A stretch of DNA of 64,000 nt. It comes from Acidobacteriota bacterium. GTDB lineage: Bacteria; Acidobacteriota; UBA6911; RPQK01; JAJDTT01. Positions 17,779-31,213 of this stretch are shown here, piece after piece. The stretch lies in assembly GCA_965209055.1 (NCBI GenBank), contig OZ242374.1, positions 3,680,001 to 3,744,000 of the forward strand. The letters run 5' to 3'. The position numbers were made by a program, and so were the translations under genes. The first letter of the stretch is position 1. Every line of letters starts with the position of its first letter. The notes beneath the pieces were generated by a model that was not told the DNA's origin, made no database searches, and saw nothing but the letters and a program-made list of their open reading frames with translations.

Positions 17779-18738
17779 ATGGCTCAGAAGAGATTCCTGA
17801 TTACAGCCCCGGTGGAAGAGATCGTGATCGAGTTGCTGGAGGCCCATGCGCCGACGGTGACGTCGCCCGCCACCGACCAGAAGACGTTGTCAGGCCTGCT
17901 CTCGGGATCGATCGGGATCGTCGCCCGGGGCGAGGCCCGGATCACCCCCGAGCTGGTGGAGGCCGCGCCCGATCTCCAAGTCGTGGGCAGGACCGGCGTC
18001 GGGTACGACAACGTGGACGTGCCGGCTCTGACCCGCCGGTCGATTCCCCTGATCATCGCCCCGGTGGGTGGGTTCTCCGTGGCCGAAGGGGCGCTGGGGA
18101 TGCTGCTCTGCCTGATCAAGAACATGCGCGCCATGGACTCGGCGGTCCGCGAAGGCAACTGGGACATCCGCTACGACGGCCTGGTCGGGGACGTGGCCGG
18201 CCATACGGTGGGCATCGCCGGGATGGGCCGGATCGGTTCCTACCTGGCCAGGCTGCTTCAGCCCTTCGAAGTGACGGTCCTGGGCTACGATCCTTACGTG
18301 GACGCCGGTCGAATGGCCGAGATCGGGGTCCGCAAGGTTGAGTTGAAGGAACTGCTGGCCCGGTCCGACTATGTCTCCTTTCACATGCTTCTGAATGACG
18401 AGACCCGGGGCATGATCGACCGGGACGCGGTCGCCGGCATGAAGCGGGGGGCGGTTCTGCTGAACCTGGCCCGCGGCGGAATCACCGACGGCCTCGATAC
18501 CCTGGCCGACGCCCTGGACGATGGGCAACTGAGCTACGTGGGACTGGACGTTTTTCCCACCGAACCTCCCGATGTCTCCCACCGGATCTTCAAACATCCC
18601 CGGTGCCTCTTCGCGCCCCACTCCCTGGGCATGAGCGAACTGGCCATGGACCGGGTCGGCCGTTCCATGGCCAACGACATGCTGGCCGTGTTGGAGGGGA
18701 ATCGACCCCAGCACTGCGTCAATCCTGAAGTCTTCTAG
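17779..18738 (+). CDS. D-isomer 2-hydroxyacid dehydrogenase (SerA-like)
   Basis: GVGYDNVD; GMGRIG; NLARGG; LDVFPTEP; PH. Confidence 0.9.
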   Translation: MAQKRFLITAPVEEIVIELLEAHAPTVTSPATDQKTLSGLLSGSIGIVARGEARITPELVEAAPDLQVVGRTGVGYDNVDVPALTRRSIPLIIAPVGGFSVAEGALGMLLCLIKNMRAMDSAVREGNWDIRYDGLVGDVAGHTVGIAGMGRIGSYLARLLQPFEVTVLGYDPYVDAGRMAEIGVRKVELKELLARSDYVSFHMLLNDETRGMIDRDAVAGMKRGAVLLNLARGGITDGLDTLADALDDGQLSYVGLDVFPTEPPDVSHRIFKHPRCLFAPHSLGMSELAMDRVGRSMANDMLAVLEGNRPQHCVNPEVF

Positions 18739-18796
18739 GAGTGGGGGTTTTCCTATCCCGATAGCCCCACAGTCAACAACTACCAAACATTAACGT

Positions 18797-18809
18797 TTTC
18801 AATGGATTA
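18797..18809 (+). promoter_or_regulatory. IHF-like site, left att arm
   Basis: TTTCAATGGATTA, one mismatch to WATCAANNNNTTR; about 42 bp inside the core. Confidence 0.55.
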
Positions 18810-18863
18810 CCGGGTTCTTCGCCGAATCGGTAGCGTGGTTGACTCCCTATGTTTGACATCCTG

Positions 18864-18882
18864 AACAGGCAACAAACAGGCA
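18864..18882 (+). repeat. Putative integrase arm-binding repeat (left)
   Basis: AACAGGCA-ACA-AACAGGCA, identical to 31052-31070. Confidence 0.75.
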
Positions 18883-18980
18883 GCAGTATTCGAGCCTGCG
18901 ATGCCGGTCTGGTACTATTTCCTCTGCGATATAGGCCCGCCGTCACCAGATCCGCTGTGACGAAGGTCGGGCAGTCGGAC

Positions 18981-20036
18981 TCAGTTTTTTGGCCCTTCCA
19001 CGTTCGTGCGATTCGCCGAGACGGCGCGTACGTACTCAAGCACTTCTGGTCGAATCTCGTCCCACTCTTCCAGGGTCTTGAAGGAGAGAGCATAGCCACC
19101 GTGTGTCCATTCTTCGAGATTGACGGAACCACTGAGCCTGGCAAATGCACCGTCACCGCCCCATGTAATCGCCTGCGGCAATACGCTGACGCTGCACACT
19201 TCCGTTCCCAGATATCCGGCTTGCACGCCAAAGTAGGTTCTCGTGACGTTGGAATCCCCAGGCTCGCTGAGCACAAATCCGACGCTCGTGCTCCCTACCT
19301 GCTCCCAAACGCCCTGCTCTGGCAGATGTCGGCGAAGGTCGGCATGGACTCGGTCAAAGAGTTCCTTGTATCCATTGTCAACCAGGTATTTTTCCAGAGC
19401 CCGACGCTTTTCGGCGGTGGTTGCGGAAGGACGCTTTCGGATGATTTCTGTTCGTCCTGACTCCACCTCCAGTTGTCGAGCTAGGAGTCGCTCCCCTTCA
19501 CGTTGAAACCCGTGGAATGTCACCACGGAAATATCCACTGGCCCAGCAGAAATGAATCGTGCCATCCGTTCGGCTACAGCGTCCACACCCAATCCGACGA
19601 GTACCATGCGGGGCGGCAGGAGGCGTGACAGGTCGTCCCCGCCGAAGTTGTCGGCGTACCATTGCTCGAAGTCATCGATCTGTTCGATACCGTCGTTCCC
19701 GCTACGTTCGGAAATGTGCTTCGCGAGGTCGCCGGTACTCATGGCGTCCAAGTCCGAAGCGTAGTCCAAGACTTGGGTCACAGCCTCGCGGGCAAGCATC
19801 CCTCGCTTCAACTCGTAGACGACCAGACGGCCGTCCGCGTCAACGGCGAGCAGATCCAGCCAACCGGTTTGGGTGGGCGTCTGTCGTCCCACGAGACGGA
19901 GGCCCGGTTCGAGCATTTCCGGGTTGCGAACCAAAAGCTCCTCCAAGCCCAACTCGGTTTGCATCTGCTTGAGCGGTGACAGGGGCGCCACCGTCCCCGA
20001 CCCGTCGACCGCCCAGATACACAGTTCCTCAGTCAT
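18981..20036 (-). CDS. NucS/DUF91-like PD-(D/E)XK endonuclease
   Basis: ELGLEELLVRNPEMLEPGLRLVGRQ; LDLLAVDADGRLVVYELKRG; QVLDYA. Confidence 0.8.
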   Translation of the reverse strand: MTEELCIWAVDGSGTVAPLSPLKQMQTELGLEELLVRNPEMLEPGLRLVGRQTPTQTGWLDLLAVDADGRLVVYELKRGMLAREAVTQVLDYASDLDAMSTGDLAKHISERSGNDGIEQIDDFEQWYADNFGGDDLSRLLPPRMVLVGLGVDAVAERMARFISAGPVDISVVTFHGFQREGERLLARQLEVESGRTEIIRKRPSATTAEKRRALEKYLVDNGYKELFDRVHADLRRHLPEQGVWEQVGSTSVGFVLSEPGDSNVTRTYFGVQAGYLGTEVCSVSVLPQAITWGGDGAFARLSGSVNLEEWTHGGYALSFKTLEEWDEIRPEVLEYVRAVSANRTNVEGPKN

Positions 20037-20324
20037 TTCTGCGTCCGATATCTCAATCGGCTCATCAAGCTACACGATTGTCGCCGTCCGATTCAAACGC
20101 GCCGTTCCAACGGGGGATACGGCCCTGCTCAACCCCTACGGAGGGGTGACGGCAGCACTGAAGCGGGCGGTCGAGTTGCAACCAGCGGCGGAAAGTCGCT
20201 CCTTCCAGGTCGTGATTGACGGTGAACGCACTCGGCAATCGCAAGGGCCTTTGGAGGCTCGTTTCGGCTGTGCCTCAAGGGGGTCTCGCGCCCGATCCGG
20301 GATGTGAATGGGACAAGGGGGGTG

Positions 20325-20541
20325 GATTCACAAAAAGCGGTCCCGGTGATTCACAAACGCGCTGTCCCCGATCTTTTTTCCTTTCAGTCAGTTACGGCCC
20401 CATTTCTGGCCACCGGGTGGCCGCACGGGGAAAATGGAGGTGGACGGGAGCGACCCCCCCTTTTTCCTGCCCGGTGCGGGCGCGGGGGTGTTGCGCAATT
20501 CACATTTGCGCAGCACCCCCTGGGGGGGTCGCTCCCGTCCA
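20325..20541. other. Structured non-coding region, candidate oriV/oriT remnant
   Basis: GATTCACAAA at 20325 and 20348; perfect 20-bp inverted repeat 20441-20460/20522-20541 enclosing an internal hairpin. Confidence 0.5.
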
Positions 20542-21145
20542 AATTATCCCTGGCGGGAAGGCAGTAAGATGATCCCATGAAGCCATGAAGTGGCGTTATG
20601 CAGGTATCATTCCGGCGGATTAGGCGGACATTGTCTGGCGAGCCGAATACGATCCCATATTCCGGCCTGGAGACCATCCGGTGCTGGACCTGATCGCCGT
20701 TCACGATCGTGCCGGGTATACGGTGACCCGGATTTGGCACTCTATGGCTCCCGATATCGCCGTCCTGCTCGGTGGGCAAAATTGCTTGTCCGTCTGACGC
20801 GTCTATGTCCAAATGAACCGCAGGTCGATAGATCGAAGGATCCTGCTTACGTGGCCGACCCGGTTCCGTTAGATCGTCGTCGGCGAAGCGCACCATCCGG
20901 CGAAGCCGTAGGAAGTCTCTCAACTCTCTTGGTTTTTCATTCCCGAGTGGTGCCTCTATACTGAATGCTGATCTTTCAGGACTGGGGGTTCTGGCAAGAC
21001 ATCGTGCATCGGAGTACGATCCGCTCGCATAGCCGGATGTGTTTGTCAAAAAGGAGTTGCAGACCAACCGAGGCAGCCTGCACACTTCTGCACCGCACTC
21101 CGCATCCCGGTCAGCGCCTCAGAAAACCATTGCCCGCATATCCAC

Positions 21146-23431
21146 ATGGCCATCACAGTCTTTAACGACAGCTCGTACAGCCTGTCTGCCTTGGTCGAGG
21201 CGATCGGTAGGGGCGAGATTGCTCTGCCCGACATCCAGCGACCCTTCCGCTGGAAGGCGACCAAGGTCCGAGACCTCTTCGACTCGATGTACCGTGGCTT
21301 CCCCGTTGGCCACCTGATCTTCTGGGCAACCGGTGCCGAGATGGGTGCCCGCCGAATCGGCACGCATGCCCACGAGGCCGCGCCGCGCCTCATGATCGTG
21401 GATGGCCAGCAGCGGCTCACCAGCCTCTACGCCGTGCTCACGGGGAGCGAAGTGCTCCGTGAGGATTACACTGCTTCGCGGATTCGTATCGCGTTTCGCC
21501 CCCGAGACGGCAGCTTCGAGGTAGCCGATGCCGCAGTGGTAAGGAACCCGGAGTTCATCGCCGACATCTCGATTCTATGGGCTGGCGGCAGTTTGCTAAA
21601 GAAGGTGCGGGAGTTCCTCATGCGCCTGGAAGAAAGCAAGGGTGATCTTGGCGAGGACCGGCGCGTCCGCATTGAATCGGCCATTGAAAGACTCTACAAC
21701 CTCCGAAACTATCCTTTTAAGGCCATGGAGGTGGCTTCAACGGCAGGTGAGGAACAGGTCGCGGACATCTTCGTGCGCATCAATAGCAAGGGGGATAGAC
21801 TCGGCCAAGCCGACTTCATTCTCACACTGATGTCCGTCTGGTGGGAGGAGGGCCGCAAGCAACTGGAGAAATTCGCCCGGAACGCTAGGCTCCGGCCTCC
21901 TGGGCCGTCTCCCGCAAATCCGTTCATCGACCCGTCCGCGGACCAGATGCTACGCGTGGTTTCGGGACTTGCCCTCCGGCGCGCCCGCCTTCGATACGTC
22001 TATCAGGTGCTTCGGGGCAAAGACCTTGAGACCGGCGAGATTTCGGCTCAGATCCGGGAGAAGCAGTTCGCCACATTGCGGGAGGCTCAGGCGGAGACCC
22101 TTTCGCTGACTAATTGGCACGAGTTTCTTAAGGCAGTCCGTCGGGCCGGCTACCGAAGCCGAGCCATGATCAGTTCGGAGAACAATCTGATGTTCTCCTA
22201 CCTGATGTACCTGATTGGCCATCGAGACTACCGGATCAACCGCAGGACCCTTCGCGAAGCCATCGCTCAATGGTTCTTCATGACCTCACTTACTGGCCGA
22301 TACACGGGCAACTTCGAGAGCCGAGTTGAGCAGGATCTCCGCCGTGTCGCCGAGGCGAGGTCCGGTGATGAGTTTGTGGCAATGCTGAACGGGATCATCG
22401 ACACGACGCTCACCATGGACTATTGGACGATCCAACTCCCCAGTTCGCTTGAGACTTCCTCAGCCTTCGGTCCGACGGTGTTCGGATACCACGCAAGCCT
22501 TGTTCTCCTCAATGCGCAGCCGCTGTTTTCCCCGCTGCAATTGAGTGAGCTTTTGGATCCATCGACGCACGCTCCTCGCTCGGCCGTCGAGCGTCACCAT
22601 CTTTTTCCCAAAGCGTACCTGACACGGATTGGCATCGATCGCACAGTACAGCGAAATCAGATCGCCAACTACGCCTTCGTCGAATGGCCCGACAACGCGG
22701 AGATCGGCGACTCACGGCCAAGTGAGTATTTCCCTCCCCTCTTCGCCAAGCTTACGGCGCGGCAGCGAGAACGAGCACGGTTCTGGCATGCGCTGCCGGA
22801 GGGTTGGGAACAGATGGATTATCGGGAGTTCCTTCAGCAACGGCGGGTGCTCATCGCTGATGTCGTGCGAGCGGCATTCAACAGGCTCCGGACCGGCGAG
22901 CCTCCCGAGGAGGAGGAACCGCTGCCGCTGCCGCCTGGTGGCCACGCATGGTCCATTGACGATCTCCTCGCCGAAATGGAAACCGAGCGGGTCGAGTTCA
23001 AGTCGTCTGCCTACTACAGCTACAAGCCGAACGTACCGGAGAGAGTAATCACGGAGTCCGTGCTCAAGACCATCGCGGGCTTCCTGAACGCCGGAGGTGG
23101 CATTCTCGCGGTCGGCATTGCGGATGACGGCGAGATCCTCGGCATCCAACCGGACCTGGACATGAAGAACATGGACGGGGACCGGTATGTGAACTCACTC
23201 ACAAACCTGATCGAGCGCTCGCTCGGACCACTTGCTTCCACGATGGCGAAGATTCAGTTGCAGGCTGTCGATGGCGTGCAAGTCGCCATGGTACACGTGA
23301 CCCCATCTCCTGAGCCGATCTATGCCAAGGTCTCCAAACGTGACCGGGCCTTCTTCGTTCGGGTGAACAACTCGACCCGGATCCTTGAAGGGGCCGATCT
23401 TGTCGGATATGTCAGACAACGCTGGGCCTAG
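21146..23431 (+). CDS. DUF262 (GmrS-like) + HNH-like + C-terminal AlbA_2/Schlafen domain fusion
   Basis: LPDIQRPFRW, DGQQRLT, FVRINSKG; ERHHLFPK...NQIAN; VEFKSS...KTIAGFLNAGGGILAVGIADDG...FFVR. Confidence 0.85.
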   Translation: MAITVFNDSSYSLSALVEAIGRGEIALPDIQRPFRWKATKVRDLFDSMYRGFPVGHLIFWATGAEMGARRIGTHAHEAAPRLMIVDGQQRLTSLYAVLTGSEVLREDYTASRIRIAFRPRDGSFEVADAAVVRNPEFIADISILWAGGSLLKKVREFLMRLEESKGDLGEDRRVRIESAIERLYNLRNYPFKAMEVASTAGEEQVADIFVRINSKGDRLGQADFILTLMSVWWEEGRKQLEKFARNARLRPPGPSPANPFIDPSADQMLRVVSGLALRRARLRYVYQVLRGKDLETGEISAQIREKQFATLREAQAETLSLTNWHEFLKAVRRAGYRSRAMISSENNLMFSYLMYLIGHRDYRINRRTLREAIAQWFFMTSLTGRYTGNFESRVEQDLRRVAEARSGDEFVAMLNGIIDTTLTMDYWTIQLPSSLETSSAFGPTVFGYHASLVLLNAQPLFSPLQLSELLDPSTHAPRSAVERHHLFPKAYLTRIGIDRTVQRNQIANYAFVEWPDNAEIGDSRPSEYFPPLFAKLTARQRERARFWHALPEGWEQMDYREFLQQRRVLIADVVRAAFNRLRTGEPPEEEEPLPLPPGGHAWSIDDLLAEMETERVEFKSSAYYSYKPNVPERVITESVLKTIAGFLNAGGGILAVGIADDGEILGIQPDLDMKNMDGDRYVNSLTNLIERSLGPLASTMAKIQLQAVDGVQVAMVHVTPSPEPIYAKVSKRDRAFFVRVNNSTRILEGADLVGYVRQRWA

Positions 23432-23439
23432 GCACTTAG

Positions 23440-24628
23440 GGAAGGTCTGAACAAGTCGATTCAAGGGACGTGAGAGCCGTTATTGTTTCGGCTTTGCGGT
23501 GTCCAAACCTTCATTATGAGGAGTACCACCCTGGCAAGGCTCTGGGTGCCCCCATTCTCAGACTGATTCCCCGAATCTCGACGCACCTCTCCCGCGCCCG
23601 GATCAGGCGTTCACGCCAGAGCGCTCGGCGATCATCAGATTGGCGAACCCCACCAGCAAATAGATCCGTTGGGTGTTTTTCGCCAGCCCCCGGTAGCGCA
23701 CCTTCGCGTAGCCGAAATGCCGTTTCAGGTACCCGAATACATGTTCTGCCTTGGCCCGAACCGACGCTTTGCGCCGCTCGGCCAACGCCGCCTCACTCTC
23801 CGGTGGCAGCCGCCAACGCTTCCCCGGCTTCATCATCACCTGCCAATCCACCGGCCGATCTCGATTCTCCGACCGCTTTCCCACTCCCTGGTATCCCGAA
23901 TCCCCCCAAACTTGAGACTCCGAGCCGTGCAGCAACTCACCGGCTCGCGTCACGTCATGCTCGTTAGCCGGCGCCGTCACCACCGTGTGCGCCACCCCCG
24001 TCTGGGCGTCCACCCCCAGGTGGGCCTTCATTCCGAAATACCACTGTTTTCCCTTCTTCGTCTGATGCATCTCCGGGTCCCGCGCCCCCTCCCTGTTCTT
24101 GGTCGAGGAAGGCGCCGCCAGGATACTCGCGTCCACGATCGTCCCCCGGCTCAGCCGCAGGCCTTGCCGCTGCAGGTGAGAACCGATCTCCTCGAACAGC
24201 GCCTCCCCCAGACCATGCTCCTCCAGCCGATGACGGAATTTCAGAATCGTCGTCTCGTCCGGCAGCGGCCCCGTGAGCTTCAGGCCCACGAACCGCCGCA
24301 CCGACTCCACCTCATAGAGCAGATCCTCCATCCCCGGATCGCTCAGGTTGTAAAACAGCTGCACGCAGTGGATCCGAAGCATCGTCGAGAGCGGGTAGGG
24401 ACGCCGTCCCCGTCCCGCTTTCGGGTAAACGGGCCGAATCCGGGCTTCCAACTGCTCCCATGGAATCAACCGGTCCATCCGGGCCAGAAATCTCTCCCGA
24501 CGGGTCACCCGCTTCTTGCCGTCGTATTCCAGATCTGCGAACGTTCGTTGCGACATCATCTATCCTCCATGCAGTGATGATGGAAGAATTATCGTGCAGA
24601 ACGCTGACTCGACTTAATCAGACCTTCC
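23440..24628 (-). mobile_element. IS5-family element (IS5 subgroup), copy 1
   Basis: TIRs GGAAGGTCTGAACAAGTCGA / GGAAGGTCTGATTAAGTCGA; TTAG duplication at 23436-39 and 24629-32. Confidence 0.95.
23603..24559 (-). CDS. IS5 DDE transposase
   Basis: GRRPYPL; PDETTILKFR; IVDAS; DPEMHQTKKG; WGDSGY; VRYRGLAKN. Confidence 0.95.
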   Translation of the reverse strand: MMSQRTFADLEYDGKKRVTRRERFLARMDRLIPWEQLEARIRPVYPKAGRGRRPYPLSTMLRIHCVQLFYNLSDPGMEDLLYEVESVRRFVGLKLTGPLPDETTILKFRHRLEEHGLGEALFEEIGSHLQRQGLRLSRGTIVDASILAAPSSTKNREGARDPEMHQTKKGKQWYFGMKAHLGVDAQTGVAHTVVTAPANEHDVTRAGELLHGSESQVWGDSGYQGVGKRSENRDRPVDWQVMMKPGKRWRLPPESEAALAERRKASVRAKAEHVFGYLKRHFGYAKVRYRGLAKNTQRIYLLVGFANLMIAERSGVNA

Positions 24629-24725
24629 TTAGTCCCATCGAGTGCCAGACCGTGCATGCCCTAGAACTCATGGATCGCGACGCTGCTTGGTCCGGCCGGG
24701 ATTTACTTTCTTGGTTGCCGAAGAC

Positions 24726-25121
24726 GCATGCCACAAGCAACAGGGGAAGATTTCCGTACGGGAAACGGTTGCCGCCACCCGCGATCACATAGTGCGTGAA
24801 TGGCCCATTGACCCGCTTGTACTCCTTCCGTCGGCGTGGGTTGGTGCGCGGTAGAGTAGACAGCGCCCGTAGCCGGGCCACCCAACCGAGGTCCAGTTCC
24901 GCCTTGCGGCCCGTGACCAAATGATCGATCTGGCGAGCGGAGGTCCAATGGCGGAAGGACTGCGGCGGTAGTAACTGCCAGGCGTTCCACCCGAACGCGG
25001 CCTTCATCTTCCCGTACTCGATCTTCTGCTTCTTGGAAGGGTTAATGTTGTCAGTTTCCCATGAGGGACTAGCACCCACAGCGGGGAGCGCTGAGCGCTT
25101 GGGAGTCCTCCCGTGGGACAA
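24726..25121 (-). pseudogene. Truncated plasmid replication initiator (RepA_C, IncW/pBBR1-like)
   Basis: GWVARL...LPRTNP...YKRVNGPF...AGGGNRFPYGNLPLLL; similarity stops abruptly. Confidence 0.6.
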
Positions 25122-25210
25122 CGGGACCGCAGCATGACGGGGACAAACATCTGGAGGCGTATACTTGCCTTCGCCTACGGGATTTCAGACGCTCTCAAGC
25201 AGCCTCTCTA

Positions 25211-26128
25211 CTAGTCTGAATGGTGCCCGCGCCAGACCAACTGCTTGTCGGTCGTCGCATCGATGCAATTTTTCAAACGTGGCGGCTTGTCTGGAGATGC
25301 AAACGCCCCATCAAGTTGCTTTTGGGTTAAGTTGGTCGCGGGAGGCCTACTACGGGGATCCGCTTCGTCGAGCTCGGCGAATCGGGTGCCAGACAGATTG
25401 GTCCCATCAAGATTGGCGTTCTCAAGGTTAGAGCCTGACAGGTCCGCGTCTACGAGAGACGCACCGGACAGGATCGCGTTAGATAGGTCGGTTTTCATGA
25501 GGAACGCCCCATCAAGGTTTATCTTTGCAAGAGATCCATAACGAAGGTGGACGCCGCGTAGGTCCAGTCTGAAATTGGCGTCCCGTTCAAGCTCGATACG
25601 TTTCTCTGAGCGTCTGCGGAGCAAGTCCATGACGGCCTGCACGTCTTCGCGCACCCATTGCCGATGATCATGTTCTTCCCCTCTTTCCGCAGCAATCTCT
25701 TTGGCAGCTTCCTCAGAGCCGCTAGCAAATTGAGCGTCATCCGTTAGGATGCCGCCGTTTGTCAGAGCAATGTTCTCAACGGATTTCCCGACCGGATGAC
25801 GAGCGAACGCGCAGAATAGGCGCATGACCTCGATGTGGTATTGCTCTGGGTGTTCCCCGGAGAGGCGTTCGAGAGCATACAAGCCGCCGAGCCGGACCGG
25901 GAGTTTCTCACTGCCCAGCATTTCCGAGCATTTCTGATAGCGCTCGTTCAAAAGCCCACGCTGCGCTGTTTCGGCTTGGCGTTCAGCTATCCTGCTGCGC
26001 CATATGGCAAGGGGCAGAGCAATTCCCGCTGCGATAACCAGACCCAAATTGCGGATGATCGTACTATAGGATTCCCAGTTACTCAGCGAATCCGTAAGCT
26101 CGTCGCACATGCTTCTTTCTGCCCCCAA
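25211..26128 (-). CDS. Membrane-anchored pentapeptide-repeat protein
   Basis: Single TM segment; ERYQK...VRLGGLYALERL; A(D/N)Lxx repeats. Confidence 0.85.
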   Translation of the reverse strand: MGAERSMCDELTDSLSNWESYSTIIRNLGLVIAAGIALPLAIWRSRIAERQAETAQRGLLNERYQKCSEMLGSEKLPVRLGGLYALERLSGEHPEQYHIEVMRLFCAFARHPVGKSVENIALTNGGILTDDAQFASGSEEAAKEIAAERGEEHDHRQWVREDVQAVMDLLRRRSEKRIELERDANFRLDLRGVHLRYGSLAKINLDGAFLMKTDLSNAILSGASLVDADLSGSNLENANLDGTNLSGTRFAELDEADPRSRPPATNLTQKQLDGAFASPDKPPRLKNCIDATTDKQLVWRGHHSD

Positions 26129-26148
26129 GCCAAGGATACAAAAGTGGC

Positions 26149-27777
26149 TCAGTCAGGCTTCATCGGCAGGTGATTCTGCTTCTTCGATGAAGTGGGTCTT
26201 ACTCGCTTTGCTCGCTTGAATGTCACGTCGGCGGCTTGGGGGTAATCCACGCTCATTCCGCCCAAGAGATCCTCAATCGTGAGTAGTTGAATGCGAGGGT
26301 GATTCCCCCATGGAGATTTGTAGAAACCTGCCGAGGCTGCTTCTCGACGCATCGGTGCGGTCGGAGGATTCAGGGACAGGAAGACTCCTATCTGGGCCTT
26401 CTCACGGTTCACAACACCCACGAGGTCACGGATCTGGGACACTGTGACGTGTCCGGCCTTCACCGAGAAGATGATCTGCTTCGTCTTCCCATTCCGGCCC
26501 TCGTCATGGAAATAGAGCCGACCATCAATACCCTGGTCGGCTCCTTTTTTCTGCTCAATGGGACGAGCACCGGCCAAGCCGAGAGCCCACCACTGAAACT
26601 GATAGGGGTCCTGCCCCGCTAGAGTGGCGGCATCTTGGAGACTGATCGGTTCACCGATGACGTCAAATCGACAGTTCTTGCCGAAGGAATCCTGGAGTCG
26701 ATGACGAATCAGAGAGATGGCTAGATGGGTGATGTCGATCCCGATCCAGCGTCTATCGAGTTTCTGAGCCGCCGCAATGGTCGTCCCGCAACCACAGAAG
26801 GGGTCGAGCACAATTTCGCCCTCGTCAGTACTCGAAAGAATAATTCGATCAAGCAACAATTGAGGCTTTTGCGTCGGGTAGCCCAGACGTTCGGCAGCGA
26901 GATTGTGCAATGGACGAATGTCCGTCCATACGTCTTGCAAGGGAACGCCTGGCGAGTCTTCCGGGTATTGCTTCAATCGAGGCATCCCGCCCTTCTTCTT
27001 TGGCCAGTGAACACGATCCTTTCGGTCAAGTTCATCTAGCGTAGACGGGGGTGATCTCCAATGCCGTCCCTTTGCCGTGACGTCAATCCCGCGCCATGGC
27101 AGACCTGTTTCGCCATATCGGATGCCTGCGCCGGTCATATCGGCCCGCTTCCACCGTCTGCCATCCGGGTCAGTCTGATCGAAGAATGTTTCTATGTAAT
27201 CAGTGTCGTATTCCTGAAAGACTCGATTCCACTTGTACTTGTTCGTTTTCCCATAGAATAAGATCACGTCATGCACAGGTCCGTATCGCTTCGCACTGCT
27301 GTGGGCGCTCGTGCGTTTCCACACAATTTCGCTCAAGAAACGTTCTGGTCCGAAGACGGCATCGAGCAAGAGTTTTAAAGAATGGCTCGCCGTTGGGTCG
27401 CAGTGCAGGTATAGACTCCCCGTCAGTTTCAGCACCCTTCGAAGTTCCAAGAGACGAGGTGCCATCATCGACAGGTAGGCCAACATGTCGTTGGTCCCCA
27501 TGAACTTCCTGAAGGCGATTAATGCCTCGGCTACTCTGCCGCCAGTTTCTACCGTCTCTTGATAGGCCCTGGCCGCAGTTTCGTCCCACTGCCACGTGTC
27601 CTCGAACGCCTTAATCTGGGAAGCCGACTGTGATCCGTCTTTCTCTTGAAACAGGACGTTGTAGGTCTGGTTGCTTTTGAAAGGAGGATCTAGGTAGACG
27701 AGGTCAACGCTTTTGTCCCGCAGGTAGCGCCGGAGAATATCCAAATTGTCGCCATAGTACAGAGTGTTGGATGCCAT
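26149..27777 (-). CDS. N6/N4 DNA methyltransferase with C-terminal Mrr-like nuclease domain
   Basis: YLDPPF; GYPTQKP; LDPFCGCGTT; C-terminal GADQGIDG...SVKAG. Confidence 0.9.
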   Translation of the reverse strand: MASNTLYYGDNLDILRRYLRDKSVDLVYLDPPFKSNQTYNVLFQEKDGSQSASQIKAFEDTWQWDETAARAYQETVETGGRVAEALIAFRKFMGTNDMLAYLSMMAPRLLELRRVLKLTGSLYLHCDPTASHSLKLLLDAVFGPERFLSEIVWKRTSAHSSAKRYGPVHDVILFYGKTNKYKWNRVFQEYDTDYIETFFDQTDPDGRRWKRADMTGAGIRYGETGLPWRGIDVTAKGRHWRSPPSTLDELDRKDRVHWPKKKGGMPRLKQYPEDSPGVPLQDVWTDIRPLHNLAAERLGYPTQKPQLLLDRIILSSTDEGEIVLDPFCGCGTTIAAAQKLDRRWIGIDITHLAISLIRHRLQDSFGKNCRFDVIGEPISLQDAATLAGQDPYQFQWWALGLAGARPIEQKKGADQGIDGRLYFHDEGRNGKTKQIIFSVKAGHVTVSQIRDLVGVVNREKAQIGVFLSLNPPTAPMRREAASAGFYKSPWGNHPRIQLLTIEDLLGGMSVDYPQAADVTFKRAKRVRPTSSKKQNHLPMKPD

Positions 27778-27850
27778 AGTTCACCAGTATCCCATGAGGG
27801 GCAGACACCCAGAGAAGGAGGGATGAGAGTTCCGCTGCCGACTGAAGCCT

Positions 27851-30023
27851 ATGAACCGGCACGCGCCGGACACGCGGGAATCGGAGAAATTTAGGGATGA
27901 TTTCCGCGATAAGGCCATCGGCACGATTCGCAAATACGCCGATCTGAACATCATCAAAGCAAGAGTTGTACTCGATACCACTGGACGCCGCCGCCGCGGC
28001 TTTGCCTTGGAGGATTTGAACACCTACTCCGTTTCTCTGGAGCCGTGGTACGATTCGCCCCACGGCGAAGAACCCGGATCCAGAAAGGAGGAGATGCATG
28101 GGCATCTGTGCGCCAGGCTAACTGGCACAAGACAAGCGGTGAAAGTCCGCTGAAACGAAGGACTAACCATCCACGTTTCTCCGCGAGCCGTGCGTTGGCA
28201 CCCGTGAGGGTGTCGGCGAAGCGTCGGCAGCGGCGCGTGTGGGCGGGGCTATTGAGCATCGAAACATGCAGGAACGGAAGTGCCGAGGCTGTGGATGCGG
28301 TCGAAGGCAACACCGGCTGGACCGGGAAGGTGAGGGACAGACGGACACCGCGGTGTCTAGGAACCCAAGCACGCACGTACGTCTTGTGTCGGGACCTGGG
28401 AGGGCTTCATTTCGCTCCGGTGGTCGAGCCAGGGCCGCATGAGAAAGGAGCAAACCGAACCTCATGATGGACGAAACGAAGCAGTCGGATTCATCCATAG
28501 TAGCGATGAAGCGGGCGAACAAAGAGGGGGAACCCTCGGCGGAGCCGGTGGAGCGAAGGGATGAAGCCAAGGGGAATTCGGTGTGCCAAAGCACGCGCCG
28601 GACGCAGAGTCGGGGGAGCGTGTCCCAAGCGGCGGACCGGATACGGCGAGCCATAGCGAGAAACCCCAAGGAGCGACTGACCGCGCTGTTGCACCATATC
28701 ACCGTGGAGGCCTTGCGCCGCGCCTACCTCGGACTGAGGAAGGATGCGGCCCCGGGAATCGACGGAGTGCGGTGGGAGGAGTACGGGGCGAAGCTGGAAG
28801 AGCGACTGCTGGACCTGCATCGCCGCGTGCACCGGGGCGCGTACCGGGCGCCTCCCGTCCGGCGGGTGAGAATCCCCAAGCCGGACGGACGGACACGACC
28901 GCTCGGGATCGCGGCACTGGAGGACAAGATCCTCCAGAAGGCCGTGGTGGACGAGCTCCTGACGCCGATCTATGAGGCGGAGTTTCTCGGGCTCAGCTAC
29001 GGGTTCCGGCCCGGACGGAAGGCGCATGACGCGCTGGATGCCCTGGCCTACGGGATCGAACGGCGGAAAGTCAATTGGATCGTGGACGCGGACATCCGAA
29101 CGTTTTTCGATGCGATCGACCGGGACTGGATGATCCGGTTCGTGGAACATCGGATCGGGGACCGGCGGGTGTTGCGGCTCCTGACCAAGTGGCTGAACGC
29201 GGGAGTGATGGAAGAAGGGACCCGGTCGGACACGGGGAAAGGGACGCCTCAGGGCTCCATCGTCTCCCCGGTGCTGGCAAATGTGTACCTGCACTACGTG
29301 CTGGACCAGTGGTTCCATCGGAAATGGCGTCCACGAGTCCCGAAAGGCGAGGCGATCCTGGTGCGGTATGCGGACGACTTCGTGGCCGGATTCGAGAAGC
29401 GGGCAGACGCGGAGCGGTTTCTCCGAGACCTGGGGGAACGGTGCGCCGAGTTCGGACTGGAACTGCACCCGGAAAAGACGCGACTGGTGGAGTTCGGGCG
29501 ATTTGCGGCAGCGGATCGGCGGCGACGCGGGGCGCGGAAACCGGAAACGTTCGATTTCCTGGGCTTCACGCACTACTGTGCGAAGACCCGGAAGGGGCGG
29601 TTCCGGCTGGGGCGGAAACCGAGTGCGAAGCGGATGCAACGAACCCTGAAACGGGTGGGGGAGAGGCTGCGAAGACGCCGGCACGACGACATCTGGGAGG
29701 TCGGGAAATGGTTGGGCCGCGTATTGAACGGCTGGCTCAACTACTTTGCGGTCCCCGGAAGTGGACGATGGCTGCAAGGCTTTCGATATCGGCTGCGAGA
29801 GCAGTGGATGCGGGTGTTGCGCCGCCGGTCGCAGCGAGCGCGCTTCACGTGGAGACGGCTCCGAAAGATGGCCAAGCTTCTCTGGCCGTCGGTGACGATT
29901 CGCCACCCGTGGCCGAGCGAACGGCTCACCGTAACGACCCAAGGCAGGAGCCGTGTGCCCTAACGGGCACGCACGGATCTGTGCGGGGGGCGGAGGGAAA
30001 CCGCCGTTCCTACCGCGACATAA
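27851..30023 (+). CDS. Putative excisionase (MerR-like winged HTH), intron-split: 27851-28107 joined to 30020-30023
   Basis: GTIRKYADLNIIKARV...GRRRRGFALEDL resembles Xis/HTH_17; overlaps the int start; splicing gives ...HGHL-TAA. Confidence 0.5.
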
Positions 30024-31095
30024 GGTGAAGGATCGCCGGGGGAGACGACGGTACGTCGTCAGCAAGTACTGGCCGAACGGATCCGGTCGGCTCCGAATGT
30101 ACGCCCCCAACTACCGGAGCGCGCAAGCGCTTCAAACACGAATCGAGTCCAGTATCCTGGACGGCACCTGGAAGCGGCTCAAGCAGGAACTCGCCGGTGG
30201 GAAACGCAAGATCTGGACGGTCCGGAGTTTCTACGAGCGTTTTTTCGAGGAGTATTGCAAACCTCGTCTACGCTGCTTGCGCCGCTACGCACTCTCGTTC
30301 AAGAGCCTCAACGCCATGCTGGGGAACATTCCCCTGAAGGAGTTCCAGCGCAAGGACCTCCACCGCTACGTCGCGAAACGGAAGGGACAGGTCCAGCCAG
30401 CCACGGTGAACCGAGACATTGCGGCCCTCAGCAAGCTGTTTTCCTACGCGCTGGAGTGCGGGGAAGTGGACACGCATCCGCTGGTTCGATTCCCCAAACT
30501 GAAGGAGCCCAAGAAGGTCTTCCGGCCTTTGACGGTCCAACAGTTCCGCGACCTGGTCGAGGCGGTGGACAACCCTTCCCTGCAAGCCATGATCGCAGTG
30601 ATCGGTGAAACGGGGATTCGCAAGGGAGAGGGATTGTCGCTCACATGGAGTCGGGTGGATTTGGGCCGCCGGATGTTGTGGGTGGAGTTCACCAAGGACG
30701 ACGAACCGAGAGAGATTCCGCTCTCGAAGTACGCCGCCCGATATCTGGCGGGGCTGGTTCGTTACCTGAACACACCGTATGTGTTCGTCAACAGCCGGAC
30801 CGGGACAAGATGGGTGAATCCAGACAAGTCTCTACGTCGCGCTGCCGAGCGGGTGGGGTTGAAGGTTGGGTTTCACGATCTGAGGCGATTCCGCTGTAGC
30901 CATTGGCTGATGCAGGGTGTGGACGTGAGAACGGTGCAGAAGCTGATGGGACACTCATCGATCAGCACGACGATGCGCTACGCGGGCTACGTCAGTTCGC
31001 ATGCGCTCCAGAGCATTCGAGAGGCACAGGCTAACGAAGACTCACAAACGCAACAGGCAACAAACAGGCAACGGGTCGGAATGAAGGGACAATGA
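28098..31095 (+). CDS. Tyrosine recombinase/integrase, intron-split: 28098-28107 joined to 30020-31095 (361 aa)
   Basis: AGGAGG RBS; spliced MGIYKVKDRRG...; catalytic R (TGIRKGE), HDLRR, GHS and TMRY are intact. Confidence 0.9.
28108..30019 (+). mobile_element. Group II intron (IIB-like, probably bacterial class E)
   Basis: 5' GTGCG; domain V GAGCCGTGTGCCC-TAAC-GGGCACGCACGG; 3' end ...CTACCGCGAC; EBS1 GGATGC (28293-98) and EBS2 CATGCA (28265-70) pair with the 5' exon. Confidence 0.93.
28464..29963 (+). CDS. ltrA: Group II intron reverse transcriptase/maturase (no endonuclease domain)
   Basis: RPLGI, GFRPG, GTPQGS, YADD, FDFLGF, maturase GWLNYF. Confidence 0.96.
   Translation: MMDETKQSDSSIVAMKRANKEGEPSAEPVERRDEAKGNSVCQSTRRTQSRGSVSQAADRIRRAIARNPKERLTALLHHITVEALRRAYLGLRKDAAPGIDGVRWEEYGAKLEERLLDLHRRVHRGAYRAPPVRRVRIPKPDGRTRPLGIAALEDKILQKAVVDELLTPIYEAEFLGLSYGFRPGRKAHDALDALAYGIERRKVNWIVDADIRTFFDAIDRDWMIRFVEHRIGDRRVLRLLTKWLNAGVMEEGTRSDTGKGTPQGSIVSPVLANVYLHYVLDQWFHRKWRPRVPKGEAILVRYADDFVAGFEKRADAERFLRDLGERCAEFGLELHPEKTRLVEFGRFAAADRRRRGARKPETFDFLGFTHYCAKTRKGRFRLGRKPSAKRMQRTLKRVGERLRRRRHDDIWEVGKWLGRVLNGWLNYFAVPGSGRWLQGFRYRLREQWMRVLRRRSQRARFTWRRLRKMAKLLWPSVTIRHPWPSERLTVTTQGRSRVP
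31052..31070 (+). repeat. Putative integrase arm-binding repeat (right)
   Basis: AACAGGCAACAAACAGGCA, within the int 3' end, identical to 18864-18882. Confidence 0.75.
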
Positions 31096-31114
31096 ATGGA
31101 GGGGATATTTGGGA

Positions 31115-31127
31115 TAACCGGTTGATA
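31115..31127 (-). promoter_or_regulatory. IHF site, right att arm
   Basis: Minus strand TATCAACCGGTTA matches WATCAANNNNTTR exactly; about 43 bp from the core. Confidence 0.7.
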
Positions 31128-31176
31128 ATTAAGGATCTAGATCGTAGATCATTTGGACCGAGCGACGGATTTCCTA

Positions 31177-31213
31177 CCCCCACTCCCCAGGGGATAGGAA
31201 AGTCCCCCCACTA
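31177..31213. repeat. Right half of the interrupted REP plus a second inverted REP
   Basis: CCCCCACTCC then GGGGATAGGAAAGTCCCCCCACTA (reverse complement TAGTGGGGGGACTTTCCTATCCCC). Confidence 0.75.

Follow-up and report, generated by a model that had tools for sequence, protein, structure and literature searches.

A group II intron at the start codon of a tyrosine-recombinase integrase gene in a multi-copy integrative element of an Acidobacteriota genome

Group II introns that home into multi-copy mobile DNA are already known from other bacteria, and the case described here follows that pattern. The introns with which it can be compared fall into different classes: RmInt1 is a class D intron; Ll.LtrB is a IIA intron whose protein, LtrA, has an En domain; and class C (IIC) introns, which have no EBS2, are inserted just after a terminator-like stem-loop, with IIC-attC introns sitting in integron attC stem-loops. 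Classes C, D, E, F and some CL are described as En-less (PMC4424553). Among known cases, RmInt1 in ISRm2011-2 comes closest. In the account given for S. meliloti 1021, 13 RmInt1 homing sites lie in IS elements and 3 of these are invaded, all on the lagging-strand template; the RmInt1 intron-encoded protein (IEP) is described there as having no En, and the empty ISRm2011-2 sites as having the full target (PMC1802570).

The window, by which the whole 64,000-nucleotide stretch of DNA analysed here is meant, contains a group II intron in the integrase gene of an integrative element. It resembles RmInt1, as described, in its En-less IEP, in a site located in a multi-copy mobile element with partial occupancy (3 of 26 copies versus 3 of 13), in occupied sites that map to the lagging-strand template, although for the window intron this bias is not significant, and in empty sites that have the full target. 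It differs from RmInt1 in its host, which is a tyrosine-recombinase integrative element with cargo and not an IS, in a site at codon 4 that overlaps the start codon, and in a longer IEP (499 aa, with an N-terminal extension). The likeness to Ll.LtrB, which is located in the ltrB relaxase gene of Lactococcus lactis pRS01 and thus also in a mobile element's mobility gene, would extend to the need for splicing in the element's transfer function and to EBS-IBS pairing that can act on spliced mRNA, as reported for that intron (PMC6003770). In contrast, LtrA is longer (599 aa) and the Ll.LtrB target is single-copy and mid-gene, whereas the window intron has 26 targets at the translation start. A looser likeness is to IIC-attC introns, as relatives of the window intron in congeners occur in the type of hairpin found at the ends of the integrase-bearing elements; unlike IIC introns, the window intron has a clear EBS2, the ribozyme part in its lineage is about 640 nt, and its relatives lie inside the loop and not after the stem. 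Because the occupancy pattern mirrors that of RmInt1 in ISRm2011-2, it is probable that an active, En-less group II intron retrohomed into the integrase start of a multi-copy element as a selfish element and not as a control device.

The host integrative element (18736..31184, plus strand) comprises 12,449 bp with the intron and 10,537 bp without it, with limits placed where identity with an intron-less twin ends. This twin, at C1:2810302-2820838 of the genome, which was searched as a single contig of 6,077,182 bp, matches 18736-28107 and 30020-31184 of the window contiguously and, the intron excepted, is 100% identical over 10,537 bp with 0 mismatches and 0 gaps. The integrase is at the right end of the element, and the cargo identified with Pfam includes a NucS-like nuclease, GmrSD, an IS5-type IS, a pentapeptide protein and an N6/N4 methylase-Mrr fusion, of which the nuclease, GmrSD and methylase-Mrr give it a defence-like character. 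The IS5-type IS (23437-24631) encodes a 318 aa protein with DDE_Tnp_1 and DUF772 on the minus strand, has 27-nt terminal inverted repeats and is present in about 24 genome copies.

The left, attL-like end of the element, TAGGAGTGGGGGTTTTCCTATCCC (18736..18759, plus strand), is the 5' half of a REP-like hairpin located at the twin identity boundary, and the right, attR-like end, ...GGATTTCCTACCCCCACT (31165..31184, plus strand), is the 3' half of such a hairpin. The left-end architecture recurs at 30 left blocks of about 120 nt, 26 of them with an integrase, and each integrase is preceded at 1.5-24 kb by one such block of the same orientation. The tyrosine-recombinase integrative elements so delimited are a family whose cargo varies. 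Left ends have a G-rich arm followed by a loop and a short return arm, and right ends close with the matching loop and a C-rich arm. The loop core is common to both ends of an element and differs between subfamilies (ACTGTTAGT, its complement ACTAACAGT, ATTTCCAAT and TTTTCCTA); the elements look as if they had been inserted into the loops of REP-like hairpins. An example of the minimal form, of about 2.8 kb, is found at C1:3004476-3007200. Directly outside the right end of the window element, 31185-31210 (GGGATAGGAAAGTCCCCCCACT) is an inverted near-copy of a left-end hairpin half and may be a remnant of another element's end. A separate module at 20121-20563 (core 20400-20570) occurs in 24 long copies, most of which lie some 400 nt in from the left end of an element, and its last ~150 nt recur in about 40 shorter copies. 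The fold of its core is a long nested hairpin (-111.7 kcal/mol, z = -8.3; none of 200 shuffles did as well), and the module has no match in Rfam or Pfam.

The interrupted gene belongs to the tyrosine recombinase/phage integrase family, as PF00589 is matched with 93.3 bits against a cut-off of 27.1 (E = 1.9e-26), while the Pfam families Int_N and SAM_1 score slightly under their cut-offs. Assignment as a XerC/D equivalog was rejected, with all Xer-type NCBIfam models far under their cut-offs. The coding part of exon 1, ATG GGC ATC T (28098..28107, plus strand), is delimited by the sequence itself and by the intron-less paralogs described below, and the intron interrupts codon 4, ten bases into the gene. 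Exon 2 (30020..31095, plus strand), which holds the rest of the gene including its stop codon, opens AT AAG GTG at 30020, and the joined exons encode MGIYKVKD in the frame of the integrase ORF. The predicted spliced integrase has 361 aa and is 100% identical to the product of the twin's uninterrupted gene.

The intron itself (GTGCG...CGCGAC, 28108..30019, plus strand) is 1,912 nt long. Its extent is directly supported by Rfam, by its precise absence from the twin and, independently, by the same exact length in three copies that are 100% identical, and the window reads ...AAAGGAGGAGATGCATGGGCATCT|GTGCGCC...CCTACCGCGAC|ATAAGGTGAAGG... across the two junctions. GTGCG at 28108 and ...GAC ending at 30019 fit the 5' GUGYG and 3' AY that are the conserved ends of bacterial group II introns. 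Domains D1-D4 are matched by RF02005 at 28142-28365 over model positions 1-225 of 225 (160.7 bits, gathering score 49), and domains V and VI (29946..30019, plus strand) by RF00029 (41.0 bits, gathering score 40) with a match that ends exactly at 30019. A Moco-riboswitch match at 29898-30049 was rejected, as its score of 23.9 is under the gathering score of 36 and it lies across domains V/VI.

The ORF within the intron (28464..29963, plus strand) encodes an RT/maturase of 499 aa, with RVT_1 at 125.6 bits (E = 2.8e-36), a YADD motif in the translation and a score of 363.8 bits against the cut-off of 300 for the NCBIfam group II RT/maturase equivalog TIGR04416; the maturase family GIIM is weak (19.7 bits, under its cut-off of 23). 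Its best relatives of solved structure are group II RTs, among them the GsI-IIC RT (1.1e-44), and no HNH endonuclease domain was matched in Pfam, which returned RVT_1 and GIIM only. Ends, ribozyme domains, IEP and EBS-IBS pairing together identify a bacterial ORF-containing group II intron. The first-pass annotation had placed such an intron, with an intact RT/maturase, in the integrase; the Rfam matches, the RT and the exon joint bear this out, and its end coordinate, 30023, falls within exon 2 by 4 nt, the intron proper being 28108-30019. The best plasmid homologs are 55-59% identical, with the class not given in their records. Class C is excluded because EBS2 is present and covaries; 19 of 22 relatives, moreover, lie inside hairpin loops, although a 6-bp hairpin precedes the window site, which is one trait of that class.

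Recognition of the exons involves two guides located in domain I, both on unpaired, variable positions of the Rfam consensus. EBS1, GGATGC (28293..28298, plus strand), in a terminal loop, pairs with IBS1, GCATCT (28102..28107, plus strand), with one G-U, and EBS2, CATGCA (28265..28270, plus strand), in an internal loop, pairs with IBS2, TGCATG (28095..28100, plus strand), which includes the ATG at 28098-28100. A 6-mer match by itself would be at chance level, with about 0.5 expected per strand in 1.9 kb, and it is covariation that establishes the pairings. In an alignment of 23 rows (22 distinct), drawn from five congeners and including a 203-nt intron fragment from the same genome, 89.0% of EBS-IBS cells are paired, against 32-52% when the partner is slid by 1-3 columns; 9 of the 12 pairs have compensatory changes on both sides, and none of 500 shuffles gave as high a covariation score. 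Pairing across the relatives amounts to 97.7% for the EBS1 helix and to 80.3% for the EBS2 helix, whose two outer pairs are often unpaired in relatives. Six EBS1 types and three EBS2 types underlie this signal: EBS1 loops of relatives read AGTCGC, AGTCCC, AACCCC, GGGTGC or GGTCGC, with 5' exon ends GCGACT/GCGGCT, GGGACT, GGGGTT, GCACCC/GTGCCC or GCGACC, respectively, and their EBS2 reads GCTCC or CCTAC, facing exon GGAG(C) or GTAGG. Both pairings, as originally proposed from the window, are thus in the expected loops, covary in 22 related copies and are correct well beyond chance. For the first base of exon 2, inspection of the alignment by eye found no consistently covarying column as EBS3/delta partner.

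A tblastn search of the genome with the spliced protein recovered 26 full-length integrase paralogs with 88-100% amino acid identity, of which 3 are occupied by the intron and 23 are intron-less; the 22 intron-less copies besides the twin have 88-95% identity. In the DNA of each of the 23, ATGGGCATCT leads into AYAAGGTR or, in one copy, into AAAGTG. The search for intron-less alleles that the first-pass annotation had called for therefore yields 23 paralogs with the exact ligated-exon junction, and every one of them begins MGIYK, the N-terminus it had predicted and had made its refuting test. The true integrase start, where the 23 copies begin ATGGGCATCTAY, is missed in the ORF list, as had also been pointed out, the listed ORF starting at a GTG within the intron; unless the intron is removed, the integrase start will be mis-called in annotation. 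The exact 13-mer TGCATGGGCATCT is present in 22 of the 26 copies, the other four having a 1-2 nt insertion before the ATG, and the intron occupies both exon-2 variants, AT.. and AC... Nineteen empty sites have the perfect 13-mer, 11 of them in the favoured orientation, and the observations offer no explanation for why these 19 have stayed unoccupied.

Upstream of the start codon, a Shine-Dalgarno-like AAAGGAGG (28084..28091, plus strand), with a GGAGG core at 28087-28091 located 6 nt before the ATG, is kept in all 23 intron-less copies. The start codon lies within the tetraloop of a 6-bp hairpin, AGATGC-ATGG-GCATCT (28092..28107, plus strand; -6.4 kcal/mol), which belongs to the MFE structure of the intron-less context (65 nt), and the intron follows directly after its 3' arm. 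The intron EBS1 is similar to the 5' arm of this hairpin (AGAUGC-AUGG-GCAUCU). The promoter scan of 27700-28500 found 0 sigma-70-like sites. A +2-frame ORF at 27851-28153 enters the intron and, if spliced, would stop at the junction TAA (CT|A TAA), which is missing in the 19 AC-type copies, where it reads TAC; this ORF has no Pfam family, only its last ~110 nt are repeated among the copies, and it is probably a 5' leader and not a gene.

Beyond the source genome, the empty-site pattern with at most 1 mismatch is found in 8 of 9 genomes of the genus, with 20 sites in the source genome and 22 in the others. The occupied junction is found 3 times within the genus, in the source genome only, and none of the 22 sites in eight congeners is occupied. 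Elsewhere, the exact occupied junction has 0 matches in the genome collection and 0 in the metagenome collection. A looser 20-mer of the junction matched two unrelated MAGs, which is attributable to chance: one shares just 23 bases of exon-intron junction with the window and the other shares nothing. In a search of sequencing runs, 9 RNA runs contained no more than 6-10% of the words, and 4 runs of unrecorded kind contained 87-92%. Of these 13 listed runs, four (X1, X5, X8 and X10) were examined, all as contigs. The three RNA runs among the four hold relatives about 90% alike, and the joint 28107|30020 occurs on two contigs of X10 and one of X1 (depth 4.5), which is uninformative on splicing because the same joint is present as DNA in the intron-less paralogs.

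The unspliced message read from the same ATG encodes MGICAPG*, and full-length Int from the occupied copy should for that reason need splicing, as the first-pass annotation had suggested. Such a need could make the intron a control device, in which splicing gates Int and excision and thereby stabilises the island or couples its mobility to splicing conditions; exon 1 contributes only the start codon and three codons, IBS2 covers the AUG, and Ll.LtrB is reported to lower relaxase expression and conjugation (PMC6003770). This is nevertheless improbable, as Int could come in trans from the identical intron-less element and from 22 intron-less paralogs of the same cell, which would leave a splicing gate on island mobility with little effect. 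It also agrees poorly with occupancy of only 3 of 26 copies and of 0 of 22 sites in eight congeners, and with the presence of related introns in non-coding hairpins, which indicates a lineage not specialised for integrase regulation. Under the preferred reading of selfish retrohoming, the splicing need of the occupied copy would be a by-product of the intron's location and not a demonstrated control device.

The three intron copies in the genome are 100% identical over 1,912 nt and occupy the same integrase position, while the three occupied genes are only 87.4-90.1% identical to each other over exon 2. The nearest relative of each occupied copy is an empty copy (100, 96.8 and 93.0%), and the occupied copies fall into three separate clades of the 26-sequence tree. 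Since identical introns are located in diverged integrase genes of separate clades, the three insertions are independent and point to three recent homing events, and duplication of an intron-bearing segment would not fit this pattern. Mapping of the intron's other insertion sites, also called for earlier, thus gives three copies at one integrase position, and together with the EBS-IBS covariation this upholds the proposed cognate homing site and suggests retromobility to cognate sites.

Gene conversion between integrase copies could also spread the intron without reverse transcription, and the exons right around the site, nearly identical in all copies, would permit the homologous recombination that this or DNA duplication of the intron-bearing segment would involve. 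That the three copies arose in this way, or that the intron is a dead relic, is nonetheless highly improbable: in each of the three copies the identity breaks off precisely at the two ends of the intron, the flanks begin to differ some 45-80 nt upstream, and exon 2 differs by 10-13%. The occupied copy at C1:5.306 Mb has private bases at about 45-60 nt upstream of the junction, while the window copy is indistinguishable from its twin. The RT ORF, YADD motif, domain V and EBS are intact and identical in the three copies. A true relic of an earlier invasion is available for contrast in the decayed 203-nt 5' fragment of a related intron at G000 C1:5641015-5641217 (minus strand, locus L004), which has 84% identity, different EBS1/EBS2 and the site GTAGG-G-GCACCC.

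Homing into these genes could be related to the direction of replication. The origin was placed near 1.45 Mb (GC-skew minimum at 1.44 Mb, dnaA at 1,451,343) and the terminus near 4.2 Mb (GC-skew maximum), and on this map the sense strand is on the lagging-strand template in 16 of 26 copies, among which are the three that are occupied. The arrangement agrees with the bias that would be expected but falls short of significance (hypergeometric P = 0.215 for 3/3 occupied given 16/26 favourable). The intron-less twin is in the opposite orientation and is empty.

Related introns were sought in 61 genomes, eight congeners among them, and 21 of the 61 (a tally that includes the unpublished G016, from which no result given here derives) gave any match. 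Five congeners (G002 and G004-G007) have related introns with 80-91% identity, some of them full length and some ORF-less (about 640 nt). Flanks were taken for 22 congener copies, with truncated pieces and 64-80% matches left out, and 19 of these 22 lie within REP-like hairpin loops; one G004 intron is located in GGAGTGGGGGTT|TTCCTACCCCCACTCC, which is the hairpin rebuilt from the two ends of the window element. Compared with the commonest relative, the window intron differs at 3 of 6 EBS1 and 3 of 6 EBS2 bases. The presence of relatives in hairpin loops and the changed EBS bases indicate that this intron lineage is normally located in REP-like hairpins and was retargeted to the integrase start in the source genome. 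The ORF-less mini-introns, of 640-645 nt, have positions 1-541 joined to 1822-1912 and occur in several copies per genome (loci L032-L039, L009, L010 and L040 in G004, G005 and G006), with EBS loops that match their own flanks; L040 has an insert of about 110 nt in domain I.

The location of the guides over the start codon could also allow the intron to act in trans, its RNP pairing with the start of intron-less integrase mRNAs and reopening them, reverse-splicing into them or occluding the AUG, with lower output of the 26-copy family as a result. The exact 13-nt target in 22 of 26 copies, with IBS2-IBS1 over the start codon, would provide for this, and Ll.LtrB acting in trans is described as retargeting intron-less mRNA through EBS-IBS pairing and as causing spliced-exon reopening (PMC6003770). 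A few intron RNPs might then restrain, throughout the genome, an integrative element that is proliferating, as an RNA-guided brake. The lineage came to this target through changes in 6 of 12 EBS bases, and its relatives target the type of hairpin found at the ends of these elements. Such a brake is unlikely, as the family has grown to 26 copies with 100% identical twins and is not visibly restrained, and the intron looks like a recent arrival.

Selfish retrohoming, the preferred explanation, would proceed as follows. The intron would find its site by pairing of EBS1 (GGAUGC) with the last six exon bases and of EBS2 (CAUGCA) with six exon bases that include the start codon. The genome offers 26 nearly identical target copies, and three of these have been entered so far, independently and recently. 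Insertion may involve reverse splicing into the lagging-strand template at the replication fork, with the three copies in the expected orientation; the mechanistic analogy to RmInt1 draws on the missing En domain only. The intron would then be a selfish element exploiting a repeated and dispensable target.

With occupied and empty sites in one genome, this locus provides a natural example of intron homing caught in progress. The isogenic intron-less 10.5-kb twin and the congener introns with other guides make it a ready study system, suited to the study of target change by a group II intron, of replication orientation in invasion, and of whether an intron at the start codon dampens a mobile-element family.
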